Of a stretch of 64,000 nt of DNA, positions 2,435 to 44,337 are shown piece by piece (position 1 is the first letter of the stretch; each line of letters begins with the position of its first letter). This stretch comes from Escherichia phage pEC-N1203-2Af.1. Below the pieces are notes generated by a model. It was not told the DNA's origin, did no database searches, and saw only the letters and a program-made list of their open reading frames with translations. The stretch is taken from sequence record OQ540978.1; one strand, written 5' to 3'. The position numbers and the translations under genes are program-made.

Positions 2435-2903
2435 TAAGATAAAAGAAGACCTAGCATATGACCCTGATACTGGAATCTTTAGGTGGAAGAACACTAAAGG
2501 TCGTAGAATATCAGGGAATATTGCTGGGTGTGTCTCAACATTAGGTTACAGGTATATCTATTATGAAGGAAAATCTTACAGAGCGTGTCGGTTAGCTTGG
2601 TTTTTCTCTTACGGAAAGATGCCTGAGTTTGAGATTGATCATATCAACCAGATTAAACTGGATGACTCTCTTAAAAATCTAAGAGATGTTGACCCATCTA
2701 CAAACTGTCATAACAGAAAACAATATAACAGAGCCGGAAAAGCTGGAAAGCTCCCAATGGGTGTTTACATCAGAGAGACGGCTAGTGGCACAAAATTCAG
2801 AGCTATCATCGGAGTTAATGGAAAGACTAAGCATTTAGGGACTTTCCATACTCCAGAGGAAGCAGAGATTGCTTATAACAAGGAGAAGTTGAAGTATGAA
2901 TGA
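2424..2903 (+). CDS. HNH homing endonuclease with AP2-like DNA-binding domain (free-standing)
   Basis: EIDHINQ...NLRDVDPSTNCHNRK (HNH) and GVYIRE...FRAIIGVNGKTKHLGTFHTPEEAEIAY (AP2-like); GTG start overlaps redoxin stop. Confidence 0.65.
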   Translation: MLTDKIKEDLAYDPDTGIFRWKNTKGRRISGNIAGCVSTLGYRYIYYEGKSYRACRLAWFFSYGKMPEFEIDHINQIKLDDSLKNLRDVDPSTNCHNRKQYNRAGKAGKLPMGVYIRETASGTKFRAIIGVNGKTKHLGTFHTPEEAEIAYNKEKLKYE

Positions 2904-3552
2904 ACAATTGCAAGCAACATTGATTGAAGCTATGGGTAGTGATAAAACTGTTGTTAATGCTGCAAGGGTTTCTTTTGGTGTTGTTCGAGAAGGTGATTTG
3001 AATGATCGTGATACTCGGCTGATTAATTTCTTAGCTAGAGAGAAACATTGCACCCCGTTCCGTCATCCACAAGTATCCTTTCGCTGTAAGGCTCCAATTG
3101 CAATCGCTCGTCAACTACAGAAGCATCAGGTTGGATTCTCGTGGAACGAAATGTCCCGGCGGTATAAAGATGGAGCAGTTGAAGTCTTCATCCCTAAAGA
3201 GATTTTTGCGAGACCTTCGGACCTCCATGCAGGTTCAGGGGTTCAACTCATCGATGGAGAACGAGCTGAAGCATTGATGTTGATTAACGATGCATATGAA
3301 GCTTCTCTAGCAGCATATGACAAGTTGATTGAATTCGTTGCACCAGAGCAAGCCCGATTTGTTCTTCCTCAGGGAATGATCACTGAGTGGGTGTGGACTG
3401 GTTCTTTATATGGCTGGTTTGAGTTGTGTCGTCAGCGACTCTCCTCTCACGCTCAATACGAAGTTCGAGTATTTGCTCAATCTCTGGATGAAGAGATGGC
3501 TAAACTCTACCCAATCTCGTGGGCAGCTCTGAAGAAAACTTTGGAGAATTAA
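2896..3552 (+). CDS. thyX: flavin-dependent thymidylate synthase ThyX (divergent signature)
   Basis: AARVSFGV, HCTPFRHPQVSFRCKAPIAIARQ and S.RRY align to ThyX as recalled; the RHR position reads KHQ. Confidence 0.65.
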   Translation: MNEQLQATLIEAMGSDKTVVNAARVSFGVVREGDLNDRDTRLINFLAREKHCTPFRHPQVSFRCKAPIAIARQLQKHQVGFSWNEMSRRYKDGAVEVFIPKEIFARPSDLHAGSGVQLIDGERAEALMLINDAYEASLAAYDKLIEFVAPEQARFVLPQGMITEWVWTGSLYGWFELCRQRLSSHAQYEVRVFAQSLDEEMAKLYPISWAALKKTLEN

Positions 3553-3554
3553 AA

Positions 3555-3776
3555 ATGGCTAGTAGAAGTATTTGGATTCTGAGTCGTTTTGAAGAGACAG
3601 ATAGAGGGGAGCACGCAGAAGTGCTTTGCTCTTTCATTAGATACCCCACAAAGCAACAGCTTGAAGATGCTGGAGTAGAAATAAATCTTTCTCAATCTCT
3701 TTTTGATAAAAAGATTTCCAAGTTAACAGCCCCATTCTTTGGTTATTATTACACACTTGAGAGTTGGAGCTACTAA
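3555..3776 (+). CDS. hypothetical protein
   Basis: Start moved to ATG 3555 just after thyX stop. Confidence 0.4.
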   Translation: MASRSIWILSRFEETDRGEHAEVLCSFIRYPTKQQLEDAGVEINLSQSLFDKKISKLTAPFFGYYYTLESWSY

Positions 3777-3947
3777 TGAATGATTCTTGTTTGGAGAATT
3801 AATGTTGGAAGAAGATGATGATGTGTTCTGCACCAAGTGTGAGATGACAGTTGATGATGCATATGACCCAAGTGTAGAAATTTGCCCTTGTTGTGGAGTA
3901 TGTGAATATTGCTGTTCCCACAACTCAGAGGATTAGCAGGAGAAAAG

Positions 3948-4133
3948 ATGGAAAAGAAAGTCTGTAGCTTCTGTAAGAAAGAGAAGCCTATCGCCAACTT
4001 CAAACCCAACCCTGTGACGGGTCTGTCTCATGTTATGTGTCACTCTTGTAGGATATATCTTGAAACAAAGCACACCATTAACAGGTTGCATTATTATCAC
4101 CCAACAACATTCAAATTTAAGGTTGTGAAATGA
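3948..4133 (+). CDS. hypothetical Cys-rich (zinc-ribbon-like) protein
   Basis: MEKKVCSFCKK...CHSC; start chosen at internal ATG. Confidence 0.35.
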   Translation: MEKKVCSFCKKEKPIANFKPNPVTGLSHVMCHSCRIYLETKHTINRLHYYHPTTFKFKVVK

Positions 4134-4459
4134 TTGACAGTAATACATTTAGGACTTCAAATGGAAGTGAGATAAGTCCCGCTGAAGTAATTAATCGGCA
4201 TAGAAGGCAATTGATCATCCATTCCTATTTGTATTACTGGTTGGATGACCCTATCTGGTCTGATGATAAATGGCAACAAGTTGCTAATGATTTGGTTGAG
4301 TTGCAATCCTTGTATCCAGAGCCTACCGGAGTGTTTGACAATGAGTTCAAAGATTGGGATGGTTCTACAGGGATGCATCTCCCACACAATGAGGCTGTTG
4401 CTTGTATGGCGACAGCTGTTTACAGGATTCATAAAGATATGAACCATGAAGTGCTCTAG
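4130..4459 (+). CDS. hypothetical protein resembling the N-terminal Ia domain of NAD-dependent DNA ligase
   Basis: RRQLIIHSYLYYWLDDPIWSDDKWQQVANDLVELQSLYPEP compared with LigA N-terminus recalled from memory; no adenylation domain present. Confidence 0.4.
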   Translation: MIDSNTFRTSNGSEISPAEVINRHRRQLIIHSYLYYWLDDPIWSDDKWQQVANDLVELQSLYPEPTGVFDNEFKDWDGSTGMHLPHNEAVACMATAVYRIHKDMNHEVL

Positions 4460-38280: not shown

Positions 38281-39033
38281 TTATACACGAGAAGTACGAA
38301 TACCATAAATATCAGGCAGGCTGCTCTGAAGTCGAGTCATGTTATTCGGAATTGCGATAGGTGAACCTGAGTACTCTTGCTTCTTATTCTGCTCTACCAT
38401 TTCATCAAGGATAGCTTTTCCTAATGCTGACCATTTCTGAACTCCATTATCATCTTGAACAAACAAGCAAGCATGACGTAGAGTGAAATACAGAAGAAGT
38501 TCTGGTGCAATAGTAAGGATAGCACTGGTATCTGTATCTTCATGGAACTCCGGTGGGTCTGCATAATAACTAAGAATGACTGAGTTTTCTGCTGGAATCA
38601 AAGGACTTCCATCATCAGGATAAACAGGAGTATCTGCTTCAATGCTAGGGTAGAAAATGAAACGACTACCGAAACGAGCAAAGTTAACAGGTTGGTTATT
38701 CCAGTGAGATGGGTTAATTGTTCCATGCTGTCTACGATAGCTAATCTCTTCAGGAGATGTTACTTGGAAGATTGTACCATCTTTGGCTCTCATCATCCAT
38801 TGAGCTTCTAAGTAATCAGGAGGAATGTAAGCTACTCCATCTTTAATATCTAAATACACTTCTTTTTCCAGAGGAGGAATACGTAAGTTACGATAAATCT
38901 CTTTCTCTGCAAAGTTAATAAAGTTTGGAATTTGATTAACAAATTCGTCATCGTCCCTATCTGCCCAGAGGGCCACGGCCTTCTTTAGCCACCCATAGGT
39001 ATTGATGGGGTATTGAACATCTGGCATCGCCAT
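38281..39033 (-). CDS. virion structural protein (hypothetical)
   Basis: 250-aa ORF preceded by terminator and TAATGTATA motif. Confidence 0.45.
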   Translation of the reverse strand: MAMPDVQYPINTYGWLKKAVALWADRDDDEFVNQIPNFINFAEKEIYRNLRIPPLEKEVYLDIKDGVAYIPPDYLEAQWMMRAKDGTIFQVTSPEEISYRRQHGTINPSHWNNQPVNFARFGSRFIFYPSIEADTPVYPDDGSPLIPAENSVILSYYADPPEFHEDTDTSAILTIAPELLLYFTLRHACLFVQDDNGVQKWSALGKAILDEMVEQNKKQEYSGSPIAIPNNMTRLQSSLPDIYGIRTSRV

Positions 39034-39066
39034 AGGTTGTCCTCCTTGTTATATGTAGACAAAGAA

Positions 39067-39075
39067 TATACATTA
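39067..39075 (-). promoter_or_regulatory. candidate phage-sigma late promoter motif TAATGTATA
   Basis: Exact motif on - strand about 33 nt upstream of the ATG at 39033. Confidence 0.4.
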
Positions 39076-39100
39076 CACACTAGCTTGTATAGGTCTTAAA

Positions 39101-39126
39101 ACAAGAAAAGCCACCCGAAGGCAGCT
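39101..39126 (-). terminator. rho-independent terminator after capsid genes
   Basis: On - strand AGCTGCC-TTCG-GGTGGCT then TTTTCTTGT. Confidence 0.55.
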
Positions 39127-39132
39127 TTAGTT

Positions 39133-39681
39133 TTAGGCTTTGGGGGTAACACCTGTGAATTCACAAGTGGCTGTTACAAGAGGTTTAGTCTTGTGTGTAG
39201 CTGCAACAGAGACTGTACCAGTAGCAGCATCAGCAAGAGTCAAAAGACCAGCTGCACTGACAGTACCTGCTTCAGTAGGGGTTACAACAAAATCATAATC
39301 ACTACCAGCAGAATTGGTTACAGTAAACATTGTAGAGAAGGCAGTAGTAGAACCACCGACTTTACCAGCAATAGGACCACGACTTACAATTGTAGGTTCA
39401 GGGTCAGCAATAGCTGAGATCGTAGATGTACCGGATTTACCACCTTTAGTAGCTTTCACTGTAATCGGGGTTTCTTGCGACGCACTCGGTGCAGTGTACA
39501 GTCCAGAAACAGAAATAGCCCCACCACCCTCAACGGACCAAACAAATCCAGTTGTTGATGTGGAGCTATCACTCATTTGTGCTGTAGCTGTAAACTGCTG
39601 AGTAGCCCCCGTCGGAAGGCTTGCAACCGACGAAGGACTAACAGTTATGGTATCTACTGTTACGCCGCCACCGCCTTTCCC
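39133..39681 (-). CDS. Ig-like capsid extension expressed by -1 frameshift from the major capsid gene
   Basis: -1 frame open from 39741 to 39133; reads GKGGGGVTVDTITVSPSSVASLPTGATQQFTATAQ... continuous with the Ig-like ORF. Confidence 0.6.
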   Translation of the reverse strand, partial: GKGGGGVTVDTITVSPSSVASLPTGATQQFTATAQMSDSSTSTTGFVWSVEGGGAISVSGLYTAPSASQETPITVKATKGGKSGTSTISAIADPEPTIVSRGPIAGKVGGSTTAFSTMFTVTNSAGSDYDFVVTPTEAGTVSAAGLLTLADAATGTVSVAATHKTKPLVTATCEFTGVTPKA

Positions 39682-40721
39682 GCAGCAGTGAACAGAACGC
39701 CGGAAGCATACGGGTTGCGGTGACGCAGACCAACTTCCATCTCAATCATCCACTTCTCGTAAGAACCATCTTTCGCCAGTTCAGTACGTTTCGGAGCACG
39801 CAGAACCATCTGGGTCCAGTCAGCGCTACGGAAGAAGTAAACTGCATCGGTAGGCATCCAACGGTTAACGATGATTTTGTAGCTCTGGCCCAGCGGGTCA
39901 GTGATGCTGTTAACTTCGTAGATGAACTGCTTGGTGTTCTCAAAGATACGCTTACGTGAACCCTGAGTATTTTCTTGCAGACCAGCGAAGATCTTAGCAT
40001 GAGCCGGGTTAATCATGATGATATCTGCTTCAGAACCAGCGGTGTAAAGTTGCAGAGTCATATCAAAGATATCTGCTTCATCAAAACCGATGTTAGTAGC
40101 CGGGTTAGAAGCGTTCTGTGCAACTTTAACAGTGATTGCACCGGTATCTGGGTCAGCAGGACCATTCTTGGTTTTGTCAACAACGCCACCAGCCAGACCG
40201 CCGTGAGCACACAGGAACTGGAAAGCACCAGTCTTACGAGCTGCATGGGTGTCGTTCTTACCGATCTGAGCCGGATCAGCGGCAGAGTTAGTCAGATACT
40301 GGTCAGCCAGAACGTCGGTACGAGCCTGACCGGACAGAAGGATTTTCTCGAGGTCACGCTTGATCTCTTTACCTTTCTTCTCCAGCTGATACATCAGTTC
40401 ACGACCACGACCGTAGTTAGCGGTGGTGTTAGCAGTGTCAGAAACACGAACAACCTTACGCAGAATCTGAGTAACGTTAGACTTGATAACAGTCGGTTTC
40501 ATTTCGCCGTCTTCAGCACGAGAGCCTTCGACGTGTGCGTTATTACCATCAACGCTTGCCAGTGCATCGGTCTGCCAGCTAAAGATAGTCTGGTTGATAG
40601 ACTCTTTACCGGTCATAGATACGAACGGAGTATCCTGAGGGGACAGAACAGAAATCCAGTTAGCAAAAGAAAGTTTTTTACCATTCTGGTCATACGATAC
40701 AAATAAAGTTGGATTAGCCAT
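39660..40721 (-). CDS. major capsid protein
   Basis: 353-aa ORF immediately after the scaffold gene; carries the frameshift site. Confidence 0.65.
   Translation of the reverse strand: MANPTLFVSYDQNGKKLSFANWISVLSPQDTPFVSMTGKESINQTIFSWQTDALASVDGNNAHVEGSRAEDGEMKPTVIKSNVTQILRKVVRVSDTANTTANYGRGRELMYQLEKKGKEIKRDLEKILLSGQARTDVLADQYLTNSAADPAQIGKNDTHAARKTGAFQFLCAHGGLAGGVVDKTKNGPADPDTGAITVKVAQNASNPATNIGFDEADIFDMTLQLYTAGSEADIIMINPAHAKIFAGLQENTQGSRKRIFENTKQFIYEVNSITDPLGQSYKIIVNRWMPTDAVYFFRSADWTQMVLRAPKRTELAKDGSYEKWMIEMEVGLRHRNPYASGVLFTAAGKAVAA
39675..39681 (-). other. -1 programmed frameshift slippery heptamer G GGA AAG
   Basis: X XXY YYZ heptamer in zero frame, 5 codons before the capsid stop; the -1 frame is open from here into the Ig domain. 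Confidence 0.55.
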
Positions 40722-40762
40722 GTTATGTTAGCTCCTATACTATTAAATAATTAATTTGTCGA

Positions 40763-41848
40763 TTAATCTACGAGGAATTTGAATGCGTCTTCGTGACTAA
40801 CGCGACCCTCTGCGAATGCCTTGGCAACCTTAGCGTTGTCTGGCTTATTGGAAGTACGAGACTTTGCAGCATCAGACTTCACAACCTTGCGTGGAGCACC
40901 GGGACGTTTAATCTTAGCCATCACCTGCTGCTTACCTTTATCAAATTGGTATGCTTTATGGAGAGCTAGGAAAATAGACGGACGGTTTTCCTTCAATACT
41001 TCTTCTTCAGTAGCACCTAAGTCAATTGCATATTGCATTAAGTTTTGATATAAGTTTTCATCCCAATTTGGAATCTCACGTTTCAGAATATTAACGCACT
41101 CAACACTTTTGGCTTGGAAAGCTTCCTGTTCTTTAGCTGCTGCTTCCTGCTTAACACGCATCTGAGCCTGTTCAAGCTGGTTACGACGAGCTGTGTACTT
41201 CTCTAGGAAACGTTTGTTTTCAACATATGCTTGAGGATCTTCTACTGCAAGCTTGTCCCAATCAAATCCGTTGTAATCTTCAATTACTCGGTCTGCTTCT
41301 AAAGACGCTAATTCTAATACATCCTTCAAACCTACTACACGTTCCTCAAATGCTTCCATGTGACGCTGAAGAGTTGATTCTCGTTCGGTCATGTCAGCAC
41401 CAGTAAGATAGCCATTGGAGAGTTCTTCAATAGTCATCTCACGTCCATCAGGAAGGGTGATAACGGTTTCGTAGTCTACATCAAAGACTTCACCATCACC
41501 GTCAGCAGAATCATCTTCATATCCTGCATCGCTTGAGTCTTCCTCTTCTACTTCAGTGTTTTCATCACCTTCATCAGAGTCATCCCCATCTTCTTCGACT
41601 TCGCCTTCCTCATCATGATCTTCCCAACCATCTTCATCTTCGAACTTAAGCTCATCGCTTTCGCCGAGAAGGTCGGTATCAAAGTCGAAATTGTCACCGG
41701 TATCTTCCGGGAACTCATCGTCAATGTCCACTTCTGGTTCTTGTTCAGATTCTAATCGACCAAGCTCTTCTTTAAAAGAGCCTTTCAGGTCATCCAGTTG
41801 GAGGAAAGATTTAAAATCGTTCGGGTCAATATAATTATCTTGTGGCAT
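40763..41848 (-). CDS. scaffolding protein
   Basis: Very acidic N-terminal half then helical region; positioned between portal and capsid. Confidence 0.5.
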   Translation of the reverse strand: MPQDNYIDPNDFKSFLQLDDLKGSFKEELGRLESEQEPEVDIDDEFPEDTGDNFDFDTDLLGESDELKFEDEDGWEDHDEEGEVEEDGDDSDEGDENTEVEEEDSSDAGYEDDSADGDGEVFDVDYETVITLPDGREMTIEELSNGYLTGADMTERESTLQRHMEAFEERVVGLKDVLELASLEADRVIEDYNGFDWDKLAVEDPQAYVENKRFLEKYTARRNQLEQAQMRVKQEAAAKEQEAFQAKSVECVNILKREIPNWDENLYQNLMQYAIDLGATEEEVLKENRPSIFLALHKAYQFDKGKQQVMAKIKRPGAPRKVVKSDAAKSRTSNKPDNAKVAKAFAEGRVSHEDAFKFLVD

Positions 41849-42093: not shown

Positions 42094-44337
42094 TTACTTT
42101 TTACTTCCAAGACGTTTGCCCGGAATCCGTGAATCTTTGAGAGAAGCTTGTTGCTCTTTCTTAGTTACATTTGCTTCTTTCTTCTGGAGTTCCAAAGTTT
42201 TATCCTGAACACGAGTTTGCTGAACAATCTTCTCTTGGTCAACCTGATGCTCCATAACCATCTGCAATTCTTTCAGTACAGACTCATACTGACGGACCTG
42301 CTGTTGCATAAGAGCTAGCTTGTGCTTAGCTTGTTCCAGAGTTGCATTGTTATCTTCTTTACGGTTTTCCAGAGTCATAGCATCTGCTGCATTTTCTTGC
42401 TTGAACTGCAACTCTTCCTGACGCAGACTTAATTCATCCGCAGCTTTCTGCTGTTCGAATGTAGTACGTTCACGCTGGTCGAATGCATCAGCAATCATCT
42501 TCTGAGAAGAAGCCTGTACGTTCTCAACCTGTGCTTTAGTCATCTCGAGCTGGAGGATTTCCATCGGAGACGGCTCAGGAGGCTGATACTGTTCCAGAGG
42601 CAGTAAGTATTTATGAGTGTCTTTAATACCCATCAACTCAAAGATCTGTGCAGTCATGTAACGGTCTTGCTCCAAACCGAAGAGAGGTGCTAGCTGTGCA
42701 TCTGCTGCAATCAGCTGTTTCAAGCTAATCAGTTTCTGTGCACGTTCTGCTTTCTCATTAGGAGAGATGGCTACAACAACTTGAAGATTATGACGAGCTG
42801 GTAATTGTTTCGGATTAACCTGAACCATACCACGAGGAGTTTGTACCTCAATAGGAACTTCACCGTTTTCTCTGATAAGGCTGTAAATACCACGCATCAA
42901 TTCAACCATACCGTTGTGAGCAATGTTACGACATACCATACGGAGACGGTTCTGTGCAGCATTCATCATCAAGCCTACGGTTGCATAAGCGTTATCGTTC
43001 TTAAACACATCAGGGTTGATACCCATGCCAAGTTTAGTTACACCGGTACGTGTCTCTTTAAGCTCCTCAGACATGCCTAGGAGGCCGTCAATACCTTGAG
43101 GTAGGTTATGGTATGGGAACAGGTCAATAGCGTCCTGACGTTCCATTTCAACCACTCCACCGGGACGGTTATCAAGCAGAGAGCGGCGATCGTATGCACC
43201 AACAAGAGCTTTGTATCGACCATAGTTAGCATTGTTGACGTTATCAATATAACCACGAACTAACGCGGTACGTAAATCCTGAATATCTTTCGTAATGTCA
43301 TAGACTGATTGACCATAGAAGGAACCCGGAATCGGATACGGACAGAAGGTTACAAACGGAATGTGAGTTACTTCTTCAGTGTGAAGGATATGCTCACCAG
43401 CTTGAATAACCTGATAGAGTTTAGATTCTTTATTCTTATCTAGAACACCAGTACGGATGTAGTGCTCATAAACCCAAACCATAGTAGCGATATCTTCAGT
43501 ATCTGTACCAATGTCAGCATCAATGTCCTGACGCCAGTCAGTACGAGACCAAGCAACTGTAGATTGAGTGGTATCCATCGTGTCTGTCCAGTCGTTGAAT
43601 GCTTCAATCTCATCTTTAGGGAAGCCCATAGCAACCAGATCTTCTTTAGAACGACGTACACGATGACAGAAGTATTGTGCATCTGCAAAAGAGGTAGCAT
43701 GTTCATCAACAAAGATTTGCTCTGAAGGAACATATTCAACTTTCACACGTTTAACAGTTTGTTCGTAAGTAACTTTAACATCAACTGTACCATCTTCGTT
43801 TTCTTCAGTGAATATTTCCAGATTCTTGAGTCCACCAGCTTCTAATCCCTGAACATATGCAGCCAATGCTTCCGGTGGTACACCTTCAGCTTCTTCAGTT
43901 TGAGTAGAAGTGTGCTCATCCCAATAGTATTTGATAAAAGAGTTACGAGTAACCAGACATTCTTGTGCAGCAGAGGAGATAATATTGTATCCCGGATTAT
44001 CACGCAGAAGAATTTGGTTAACTAATTTAGTTGCTACATCAGCAGCATCAGAATCCTGTTGGTTATCAGCTACGAAAGTAACTGCTTCATCACCAGAACA
44101 GAATACGTTAATAATATCTTGCAGTGTACCGTTAACAGATTCCCAAACAGTACGATCTACCCAACTAGAGCTGCCAGCAGTTACTGGTGCAGGTAAGTTA
44201 CCATAGAAATATTCCCAAGCTTCACGAGCATAGCCCTTAACAGCCATGTCAACGTAACCTTGAGCGTAATTAAAACGACGTTGAAGGTCAACACGTAACT
44301 CGTCCAACACCTCTTCACTATATTTTTGCTTAGCCAT
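42094..44337 (-). CDS. portal protein
   Basis: 747-aa ORF directly downstream of large terminase; C-terminal coiled coil. Confidence 0.6.
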   Translation of the reverse strand: MAKQKYSEEVLDELRVDLQRRFNYAQGYVDMAVKGYAREAWEYFYGNLPAPVTAGSSSWVDRTVWESVNGTLQDIINVFCSGDEAVTFVADNQQDSDAADVATKLVNQILLRDNPGYNIISSAAQECLVTRNSFIKYYWDEHTSTQTEEAEGVPPEALAAYVQGLEAGGLKNLEIFTEENEDGTVDVKVTYEQTVKRVKVEYVPSEQIFVDEHATSFADAQYFCHRVRRSKEDLVAMGFPKDEIEAFNDWTDTMDTTQSTVAWSRTDWRQDIDADIGTDTEDIATMVWVYEHYIRTGVLDKNKESKLYQVIQAGEHILHTEEVTHIPFVTFCPYPIPGSFYGQSVYDITKDIQDLRTALVRGYIDNVNNANYGRYKALVGAYDRRSLLDNRPGGVVEMERQDAIDLFPYHNLPQGIDGLLGMSEELKETRTGVTKLGMGINPDVFKNDNAYATVGLMMNAAQNRLRMVCRNIAHNGMVELMRGIYSLIRENGEVPIEVQTPRGMVQVNPKQLPARHNLQVVVAISPNEKAERAQKLISLKQLIAADAQLAPLFGLEQDRYMTAQIFELMGIKDTHKYLLPLEQYQPPEPSPMEILQLEMTKAQVENVQASSQKMIADAFDQRERTTFEQQKAADELSLRQEELQFKQENAADAMTLENRKEDNNATLEQAKHKLALMQQQVRQYESVLKELQMVMEHQVDQEKIVQQTRVQDKTLELQKKEANVTKKEQQASLKDSRIPGKRLGSKK

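Follow-up and report, generated by a model that had tools for sequence, protein, structure and literature searches.

We analysed a 64,000-nucleotide (nt) stretch of Escherichia phage pEC-N1203-2Af.1 (sequence record OQ540978.1; hereafter the window, to whose positions all coordinates refer unless a locus is named), in which the capsid module lies on the minus strand. The major capsid gene very probably carries a programmed -1 ribosomal frameshift, which would give rise to a minority long isoform in which the capsid protein continues into immunoglobulin (Ig)-like domains. A capsid frameshift that adds Ig domains is an already published feature of the genus Kuravirus and is not new; the window offers a clean, well-conserved case of recoding that would put a sub-stoichiometric decoration on the capsid.

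The slip site and the reading frames

Read on the minus strand, the capsid gene ends in TTC ACT GCT GCG GGA AAG GCG GTG GCG GCG TAA. The heptamer G_GGA_AAG within it lies in the X_XXY_YYZ phase of a canonical -1 frameshift site relative to the open reading frame (ORF) of 353 amino acids (aa), so that the P site would hold GGA and the A site AAG; this AAG is the fifth codon before the TAA (39660-39662), and the heptamer ends 12 nt before the stop. The -1 frame has no stops from at least 39741 to the stop at 39133-39135, while the third frame is closed and full of stops. After the Gly-Lys of the capsid protein, the -1 translation is GGGGVTVDTITVSPSSVASLPTGATQQFTATAQMSDSS, or GKGGGGVTVDTITVSPSSVASLPTGATQQFTATAQMSDSS when the wider junction is read, and the predicted peptide of the long form across the Lys-Gly junction is TAAGKGGGGVTVD. 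The -1 extension re-reads G39675 and comprises 180 codons plus a stop, such that capsid residues 1-349 plus 180 would make a fusion of 529 aa and 55.9 kDa, compared to 38.7 kDa for the short form. An earlier sequence-only reading of the window had placed the heptamer five codons before the capsid stop, had taken the -1 frame to be open from 39741 through the Ig-like ORF and had put the fusion at about 530 aa; the phase and position on the minus strand, the point at which the first stop is reached and the computed size all bear this out.

The motif on its own is uninformative in number, with 7 copies of GGGAAAG observed in the window and 7.1 expected by chance. Since the motif is no commoner than expected, phase and context, and not the motif by itself, carry the argument. 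The heptamer at 39675-39681 alone combines a long in-phase ORF (349 codons upstream) with a nearby stop of that ORF and 180 open -1 codons after it, while the other six of the seven copies are followed by 1-93 open codons and have no in-phase gene.

These features suggest the following sequence of events. Most ribosomes would read GGA AAG GCG GTG GCG GCG TAA and produce the 353-aa HK97-fold capsid protein. A minority would slip back one base on G_GGA_AAG, with tRNA-Gly and tRNA-Lys re-pairing with GGG and AAA, and would then read a GGGG linker followed by two Ig-like β-sandwich domains, of which the first is a Big_2 domain, terminating at 39133 ahead of an intrinsic terminator. Since no terminator lies between the capsid gene and the extension, the two share one transcript. 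The long isoform could co-assemble with the short one because it keeps the whole HK97-fold body, and a few subunits per prolate head would then display a tandem-Ig arm, presumably on the outside. The prolate head of phage SU10 has 715 subunits (PMC9509320), and GGGAAAG in the lambda G/GT gene pair gives ~3.5% frameshifting, according to a passage of PMC9965538 that cites this value. A frameshift efficiency of a few per cent, which probably applies here by analogy, would place the Ig arm on tens of the 715 subunits per head.

Conservation of the junction

We compared the junction across 34 loci with 27 distinct junction sequences, drawn from GenBank phages, IMG/VR and metagenomes; 32 of these loci belong to the Kuravirus group (including Nieuwekanaalvirus and Suseptimavirus) and 2 to Privateervirus. 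GGGAAAG is invariant in 34/34 loci, and in 32/32 Kuravirus-group loci it occupies the same ...FTAAGK position. The next 9-12 nt differ among the Kuravirus-group loci (GCGGTGGCGGCG, GTGGCGGCG, GCGGGAGCG, GTAGCGGCGGCG and TTGGATCCGCAA), and the zero-frame tail varies freely (AVAA, VAA, AGA, VAAA, VEA, LDPQQ) while the -1 reading G-G-(G/S)-V-T-V-D is kept. Within the group, phiEco32 gp11/gp11-12, Paul CPT_Paul_010, YF01 gp8 and SU10 gp9-gp10 are the same gene with the same heptamer at the same ...TAAGK position, and phiEco32 and its Kuravirus homologues share the gene order of the window and capsid proteins that are 94-99% identical to that of the window. The window and phage NJ01 differ from the phiEco32 type in that their spacer is 3 nt longer and their linker is GGGG rather than GGG.

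Members of Privateervirus (Proteus phage Privateer/P59, Cronobacter phage vB_CsaP_009) have a capsid protein that is 56% identical to that of the window, with GGGAAAG at an ...AGK C-terminus. Their -1 extension is 169 aa long and contains Ig-like domains of a different type, and, in contrast with the window, the stop follows the heptamer immediately and the RNA around it is unrelated. Escherichia phage PJNS034 (unclassified; 42% capsid identity) has the heptamer C_CCA_AAA at locus positions 3885-3891, 3 nt before the stop, followed by a -1 extension of 132 aa (locus 3891-4289) that resembles the Ig-like extension of Privateer. The PJNS034 record lists only a 105-aa "hypothetical protein" in the -1 frame, and the extension ends where that ORF ends; on this evidence the locus looks like an unannotated frameshift. 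We also observed a locus, IMGVR_UViG_3300033688_000038 (55% capsid identity), with A_AAA_AAG at positions 3921-3927, 3 nt before the stop; its -1 extension of 42 aa has many Pro, Val and Lys residues and bears no obvious resemblance to an Ig-like domain.

These comparisons bear on whether the change of frame would occur at the ribosome. Transcriptional slippage on GGGAAA, in which a minority of mRNAs gain or lose one base and encode the fusion, would yield an identical protein outcome, and slippage of this kind occurs in some phage and insertion-sequence element genes. Known cases, however, need homopolymer runs of roughly seven or more, while the runs here are only three G and three A. The motif is kept as an exact, in-phase X_XXY_YYZ heptamer, which argues against slippage because such phasing matters only for tRNA re-pairing, and the distant relative PJNS034 has a different but equally canonical heptamer. 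We therefore regard transcriptional slippage as extremely improbable and continue with ribosomal frameshifting.

In the window the extension has 180 aa, against 178-179 aa for the phiEco32 type; its length ranges over 345-545 aa in Paul, YF01, SGF2 and SR02. Loci with longer extensions were those of Paul, SGF2, SR02, EP335, Bas88, Bas89, E20-1 and EK010 together with metagenomic contigs, and the lengths were at least 343 aa in several lineages (some loci end early), 437-457 aa in a further set and, in the Paul type, 545 aa. The extension is thus modular in length, and the capsid C-terminus seems to acquire and shed Ig-like domains.

The start of the Ig-like part

Public annotations begin the Ig-like part at an internal ATG (first base 39576), from which a separate 147-aa protein would be made. 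If the Ig ORF were a gene of its own, translated from this ATG or by re-initiation, its product would be a free 14.4-kDa decoration protein beginning MSDSS and bound non-covalently to the capsid. A stand-alone "Ig domain containing protein" is annotated in NJ01, phiEco32, SU10, MN03, LAMP and others, PHROG 13745 was built on the 147-aa form, the ATG is present in the window, and the authors of the SU10 cryo-electron microscopy (cryo-EM) structure assumed a separate protein. Five independent lines of evidence nevertheless indicate that the extension is read from the slip site rather than from the annotated Met.

The sequence-only reading held that Ig-like sequence precedes the annotated first Met, and indeed the Big_2 domain starts 27 residues upstream of it: the Pfam Big_2 match covers extension residues 8-80, while the annotated Met is residue 35. 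The strands at residues 7-13, 25-27 and 29-34 of an AlphaFold2 model of the extension all precede Met35, so a protein begun there would miss three strands of domain 1. The stretch of the predicted long form upstream of Met35 includes GGGGVTVDTITVSPSSVASLPTGATQQFTATAQ.

The ATG itself has the marks of an incidental codon. It lies 84 nt past the capsid stop, and no Shine-Dalgarno (SD) sequence precedes it (upstream sequence CAGCTACAGCACAA), while all six neighbouring genes (tail fibre, adaptor, capsid, scaffold, the 78-aa ORF and portal) have a GGAG- or AGGA-type site. There is no other ATG, GTG or TTG in the -1 frame between the heptamer and this ATG. The Met35 codon is Lys in phiEco32 (AAA throughout the phiEco32 type), ShigP1, ECBP2, KBNP1711, MN03 and LAMP and Leu in the group of E20-1, EK010 and Bas88, and the GTG annotated as the start in phiEco32 is ATA in the window. 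Because the Met is not conserved, gene callers give the Ig protein inconsistent starts and sizes, ranging from 108 to 254 aa. Translation thus probably does not begin at the ATG at 39574-39576.

Between the capsid stop and the Met, moreover, the -1 frame is under coding constraint. Among 19 distinct Kuravirus junction sequences, 5/23, 4/24 and 15/23 columns are variable at codon positions 1, 2 and 3 of the -1 frame, respectively, and such third-position variation upstream of the Met is, as read from the alignment, the signature of a translated -1 frame. Taken together with the 180 open codons, the Big_2 match from residue 8 and the confidence of the structural model described below, these data indicate a -1 frame that is both open and selected. 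That the Ig ORF is a separate gene is accordingly quite improbable.

The Ig-like domains of the extension

Domain 1 matched Pfam PF02368 (Big_2) with 28.3 bits, above the family cut-off of 22.8 bits, while no Pfam family was found for domain 2. The AlphaFold2 model of the extension, built with 27 homologues, consists of two β-sandwich domains with a mean predicted local distance difference test (pLDDT) score of 96. The extension also corresponds to PHROG 13745 and 33551, "Ig domain containing protein". A phmmer search of the PDB matched teneurin-like Big_2 repeats at extension residues 5-43 and the 448-aa major capsid protein chain of 6qvk at residues 8-78.

The closest solved fold to the whole extension model was the tandem Ig (Big_2) pair of the Leptospira adhesin LigA (8gyr, E=3e-11). 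The predicted viral fold neighbours included the 894-aa capsid protein of Paul and the 585-aa head protein of Salmonella phage 7-11, along with minor capsid proteins from two Pseudomonas phages, phiIBB-PF7A and Pf-10.

Weak adhesion to glycans or surfaces is the usual proposal for phage Ig-like domains. By analogy, weak adhesion to surface or mucus glycans would be the likeliest role of the Ig arm here, and capsid stabilisation is a possible one. Which role the arm plays (adsorption, mucus adherence or capsid stability) has some bearing on practice, since Kuraviruses, ES17 among them, are under development as agents of gut decolonisation.

Protein evidence in relatives and points against the long isoform

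Several relatives have been described as making both capsid forms, SU10 and Privateer on the basis of mass spectrometry or SDS-PAGE. The GenBank record of phage Paul gives a joined coding sequence (CDS) with the remark "Frameshift at GGGAAAG" and states that the same occurs in the PhiEco32 major capsid protein (PMID 18294652). The SU10 genome paper identified GGGAAAG, predicted a fusion as in phiEco32 and, from mass spectrometry, reported two sizes of capsid protein, 38.5 and 55.4 kDa (PMC4281155). In Privateer, a minor capsid protein was found in virions, and a frameshifted product was stated for phiEco32 and SU10 (PMC7881722). The YF01 study described two capsid isoforms in YF01 and its group, with the extended form being mostly ~500-550 aa and reaching 892-894 aa in YF01 and Paul (PMC9965538).

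Some observations weigh against a long capsid-Ig isoform in the phage studied here. Both capsid forms have been reported as protein in relatives only. The cryo-EM structure of SU10 shows no Ig density on the capsid, and gp10 was treated as a separate protein (PMC9509320). In the Kuravirus ES17, mucin and heparan-sulfate binding was put down to the tail fibre rather than the capsid (PMC7885116); that paper offers no evidence on capsid Ig domains. Finally, no stable RNA structure was found at the canonical spacing of 5-9 nt downstream of the heptamer, the nearest being a weak 7-bp AU-rich stem 12 nt downstream.

The bare SU10 capsid would be explained by a feature of its deposited sequence. Relative to phiEco32, SU10 has a 1-nt insertion 28 nt after the heptamer (GACACTGTCTACTGTT in SU10, GACAGTGTGACTGTT in phiEco32), which puts a TAG in the -1 frame and cuts the extension to 11 aa; the authors of the YF01 study noted the same insertion (PMC9965538). 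It conflicts with the 55.4-kDa isoform reported in 2014; a mutation acquired in the laboratory, a heterogeneous stock or an error in sequencing could account for it.

That SU10 tolerates a truncated extension also lends something to the idea that the heptamer and open frame are a dead leftover of an in-frame capsid-Ig fusion, or an assembly error, and that no long isoform is made. In-frame capsid-Ig genes do exist, being carried by Salmonella phage 7-11, Cronobacter phage A24 and Aeromonas phage BUCT695. On the other hand, the same frame layout recurs in 34 independently sequenced loci, the extension is under purifying selection, folds confidently and has grown to 345-545 aa in several lineages, and long isoforms were found by proteomics in relatives (PMC4281155, PMC7881722). 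A dead leftover is thus highly improbable, and a functional frameshift that makes a minority capsid-Ig fusion remains the reading we favour.

RNA structure around the slip site

The sequence-only reading pointed to a CGTCGG/CCGACG hairpin about 35 nt downstream of the heptamer, with an implied role in stimulating the frameshift. The pairing exists: CGTCGG (39632-39627) and CCGACG (39615-39610) extend to a 10-bp stem, CCUUCGUCGG/CCGACGGGGG (39636-39627 with 39615-39606), and the 85-nt segment that contains it folds with -30.4 kcal/mol (z = -2.2). The distance, however, is 38 nt to the 10-bp stem and 42 nt to the CGTCGG 6-mer, rather than about 35 nt. Canonical frameshift stimulators sit 5-9 nt downstream, at the mRNA entry channel of the ribosome, so the hairpin lies too far away for a canonical stimulator, and it is only partly conserved. 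Across the 20 distinct sequences in which we compared RNA pairing, a core of 5 bp is kept, while 2/10 pairs are disrupted in roughly half of them. The pair 39628/39614 occurs as G-C (9 sequences), U-A (7) and A-U (4), but the covariation score of 0.139 was nearly equalled (0.128) when the partners were slid by one column. We therefore rejected this hairpin as a canonical stimulator on account of its spacer, its often-broken pairs and the near-equal slid control.

RNAalifold placed the hairpin within a longer, irregular stem-loop (39590-39648) and predicted a second hairpin, at 39659-39693, whose loop contains the heptamer. The latter showed one-sided changes only; a hairpin holding the heptamer was also noted for SU10 (PMC4281155). 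In the consensus structure, 98% of the cells were paired, a figure that leans in favour of the structure because it was derived from the same sequences. Three pairs in the 39590-39648 stem-loop changed on both sides, and the pair 39646/39592 co-varies as A-U and G-C.

Closer to the heptamer, a 7-bp AU-rich stem, TAACAGU/ACUGUUA, lies 9-12 nt downstream. It is invariant and gives no covariation signal for that reason, and the segment folds no better than shuffled sequence (z = -0.76); the complementarity can be explained by both arms encoding conserved Thr-Val motifs. By eye, and with no dedicated search having been run, no SD-like motif was seen just 5' of the heptamer (CTGTTCACTGCTGC).

This junction shows no evident canonical stimulator, and none appears to be required for GGGAAAG in E. 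coli. The conserved structures at 39659-39693 and 39590-39648 could possibly have a modulatory role. A broader idea, which we consider unlikely, is that these two structures, as a conserved RNA architecture at non-canonical positions, jointly tune the level of frameshifting and with it the number of Ig arms per capsid, in which case the number of Ig domains (2 to ~6) would be a lineage-specific adaptation for adhering to glycans or mucus.

Comparison with known systems

The 10A/10B pair of T7 and T3, of which the sequence-only reading named that of T7, resembles the junction in the way it works: ribosomes that shift to the -1 frame towards the 3' end of the major capsid gene make a longer minor subunit, which co-assembles and displays its C-terminal extension. 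The likeness does not extend to homology, as the window capsid protein matches only SU10_MCP among Pfam families, and its PDB matches are SU10 and one other, not T7. The T7 slippery sequence differs, and the T7 extension is shorter than that of the window. Frameshifting in T7 gene 10 is ~10%, as quoted in a passage of PMC9965538.

The lambda G/GT pair uses the identical heptamer, G_GGA_AAG, which works in E. coli without a strong stimulatory structure. In contrast with the window, its product is a tail assembly chaperone rather than a capsid protein, its extension has a different role, and there is no homology between the two.

A C-terminal Big_2-type Ig domain on an HK97-fold capsid protein also occurs in prolate podophages without recoding, namely in the 448-aa capsid protein of PDB entry 6qvk and in gp009 of Salmonella phage 7-11. 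Residues 349-418 of the 6qvk chain, which we take to be gp8 of phage phi29, align with extension residues 8-78; every phi29 capsid subunit carries the Ig domain. In 7-11, A24 and BUCT695, it is a second capsid paralogue that carries the Ig domain in frame. These three phages, and a further locus (L011) whose second copy ends at the locus edge, have two tandem capsid paralogues and no slippery heptamer, with in-frame C-terminal Ig-like domains on the second paralogue of 7-11, A24 and BUCT695 (Table 1). Duplication of the capsid gene in these relatives is thus another route to the same end, a short and a long capsid protein.

Genomic setting

Over 39000-41000, the nucleotide identity of the window is 98.9% with both Escherichia phage NJ01 and phage 172-1, and ~89% with phiEco32 and SU10. 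Classified on this basis, the source phage is a phiEco32-like Kuravirus (subfamily Gordonclarkvirinae), a group of prolate-headed podophages. The minus-strand order of portal, 78-aa ORF, scaffold, capsid, Ig extension, terminator, adaptor and tail fibre agrees with the annotated records of Paul, phiEco32, SU10 and NJ01. The capsid protein matched Pfam PF17236 (SU10_MCP) with E=4.5e-77 and the SU10 major head protein (PDB 7Z45) with E=1e-233, and Pfam SU10_adaptor was assigned to the gene that follows the capsid/Ig region. A Pfam search with the scaffold protein gave no match.

Table 1. Features of the capsid module, in window positions, and tandem capsid paralogues of other phages, in the coordinates of their own loci
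Feature	Position	Strand	Basis or remark
Portal	42094-44337	minus	ORF list
78-aa ORF (orf78)	between portal and scaffold	minus	ORF list
Scaffold	40763-41848	minus	ORF list
Major capsid protein, zero frame, 353 aa, 38.7 kDa, HK97-fold, SU10-type	39660-40721	minus	ORF, Pfam and PDB match
Predicted hairpin with heptamer in loop, -13.2 kcal/mol, z = -1.6	39659-39693	minus	RNAalifold, one-sided changes only
Slippery heptamer G_GGA_AAG (X_XXY_YYZ), GGA in P site, AAG in A site	39675-39681	minus	
-1 extension, 180 codons plus stop, re-reading G39675	39133-39675	minus	
Gly-rich linker GGGG at junction, overlapping dispensable zero-frame tail AVAA	39664-39675	minus	
Ig-like domain 1 (Big_2), extension residues ~6-88	39412-39660	minus	Pfam PF02368, AlphaFold2
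Extended irregular stem-loop, ~59 nt, spacer 23-26 nt	39590-39648	minus	RNAalifold consensus
10-bp stem with 11-nt loop, 38 nt 3' of heptamer	39606-39636	minus	core of longer stem-loop 39590-39648
Internal ATG, annotators' start of separate 147-aa "Ig-like protein"	39574-39576	minus	without SD, not conserved
Annotated 147-aa "Ig-like" ORF	39133-39576	minus	ORF list
Ig-like domain 2, extension residues ~92-178	39142-39402	minus	AlphaFold2 β-sandwich, PHROG
Intrinsic terminator, directly after extension stop codon	39107-39128	minus	homologous site annotated as terminator in SU10 and Paul
Adaptor	38281-39033	minus	ORF and Pfam SU10_adaptor
Tail fibre	after adaptor	minus	ORF list
Capsid paralogues, Salmonella phage 7-11	1982-2920, 3001-4758		locus coordinates
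Capsid paralogues, Cronobacter phage A24	2992-3930, 4011-5096		locus coordinates
Capsid paralogues, Aeromonas phage BUCT695	3001-3972, 4049-5281		locus coordinates
Capsid paralogues, locus L011	2968-3948, 4029-4964		locus coordinates

Annotation and database records

The main value of these results lies in annotation: the gene should read complement(join(39133..39675,39675..40721)). Most public Kuravirus records, including those of the closest relatives NJ01 and 172-1, to which the correction also applies, give a stand-alone Ig protein with an arbitrary start rather than the joined isoform. Inconsistent starts in the records of the group yield Ig ORFs of 132 to 170 aa or more. The NJ01 record (JX867715.1) also has no CDS over the capsid gene (locus 2501-3559), with its tags skipping from NJ01_020 to NJ01_022.

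Two further records hold Kuravirus-like capsid sequence under unexpected names. MZ417522.1, "Mycolicibacterium phage J1" (24,953 bp), contains an 80%-identical copy of the coliphage capsid-Ig junction, and PP350014.1, "phage PH444" (114,913 bp), holds a Kuravirus capsid region, Kuravirus genomes being ~77 kb. Contamination, mislabelling or chimeric assembly is the likely explanation for both.

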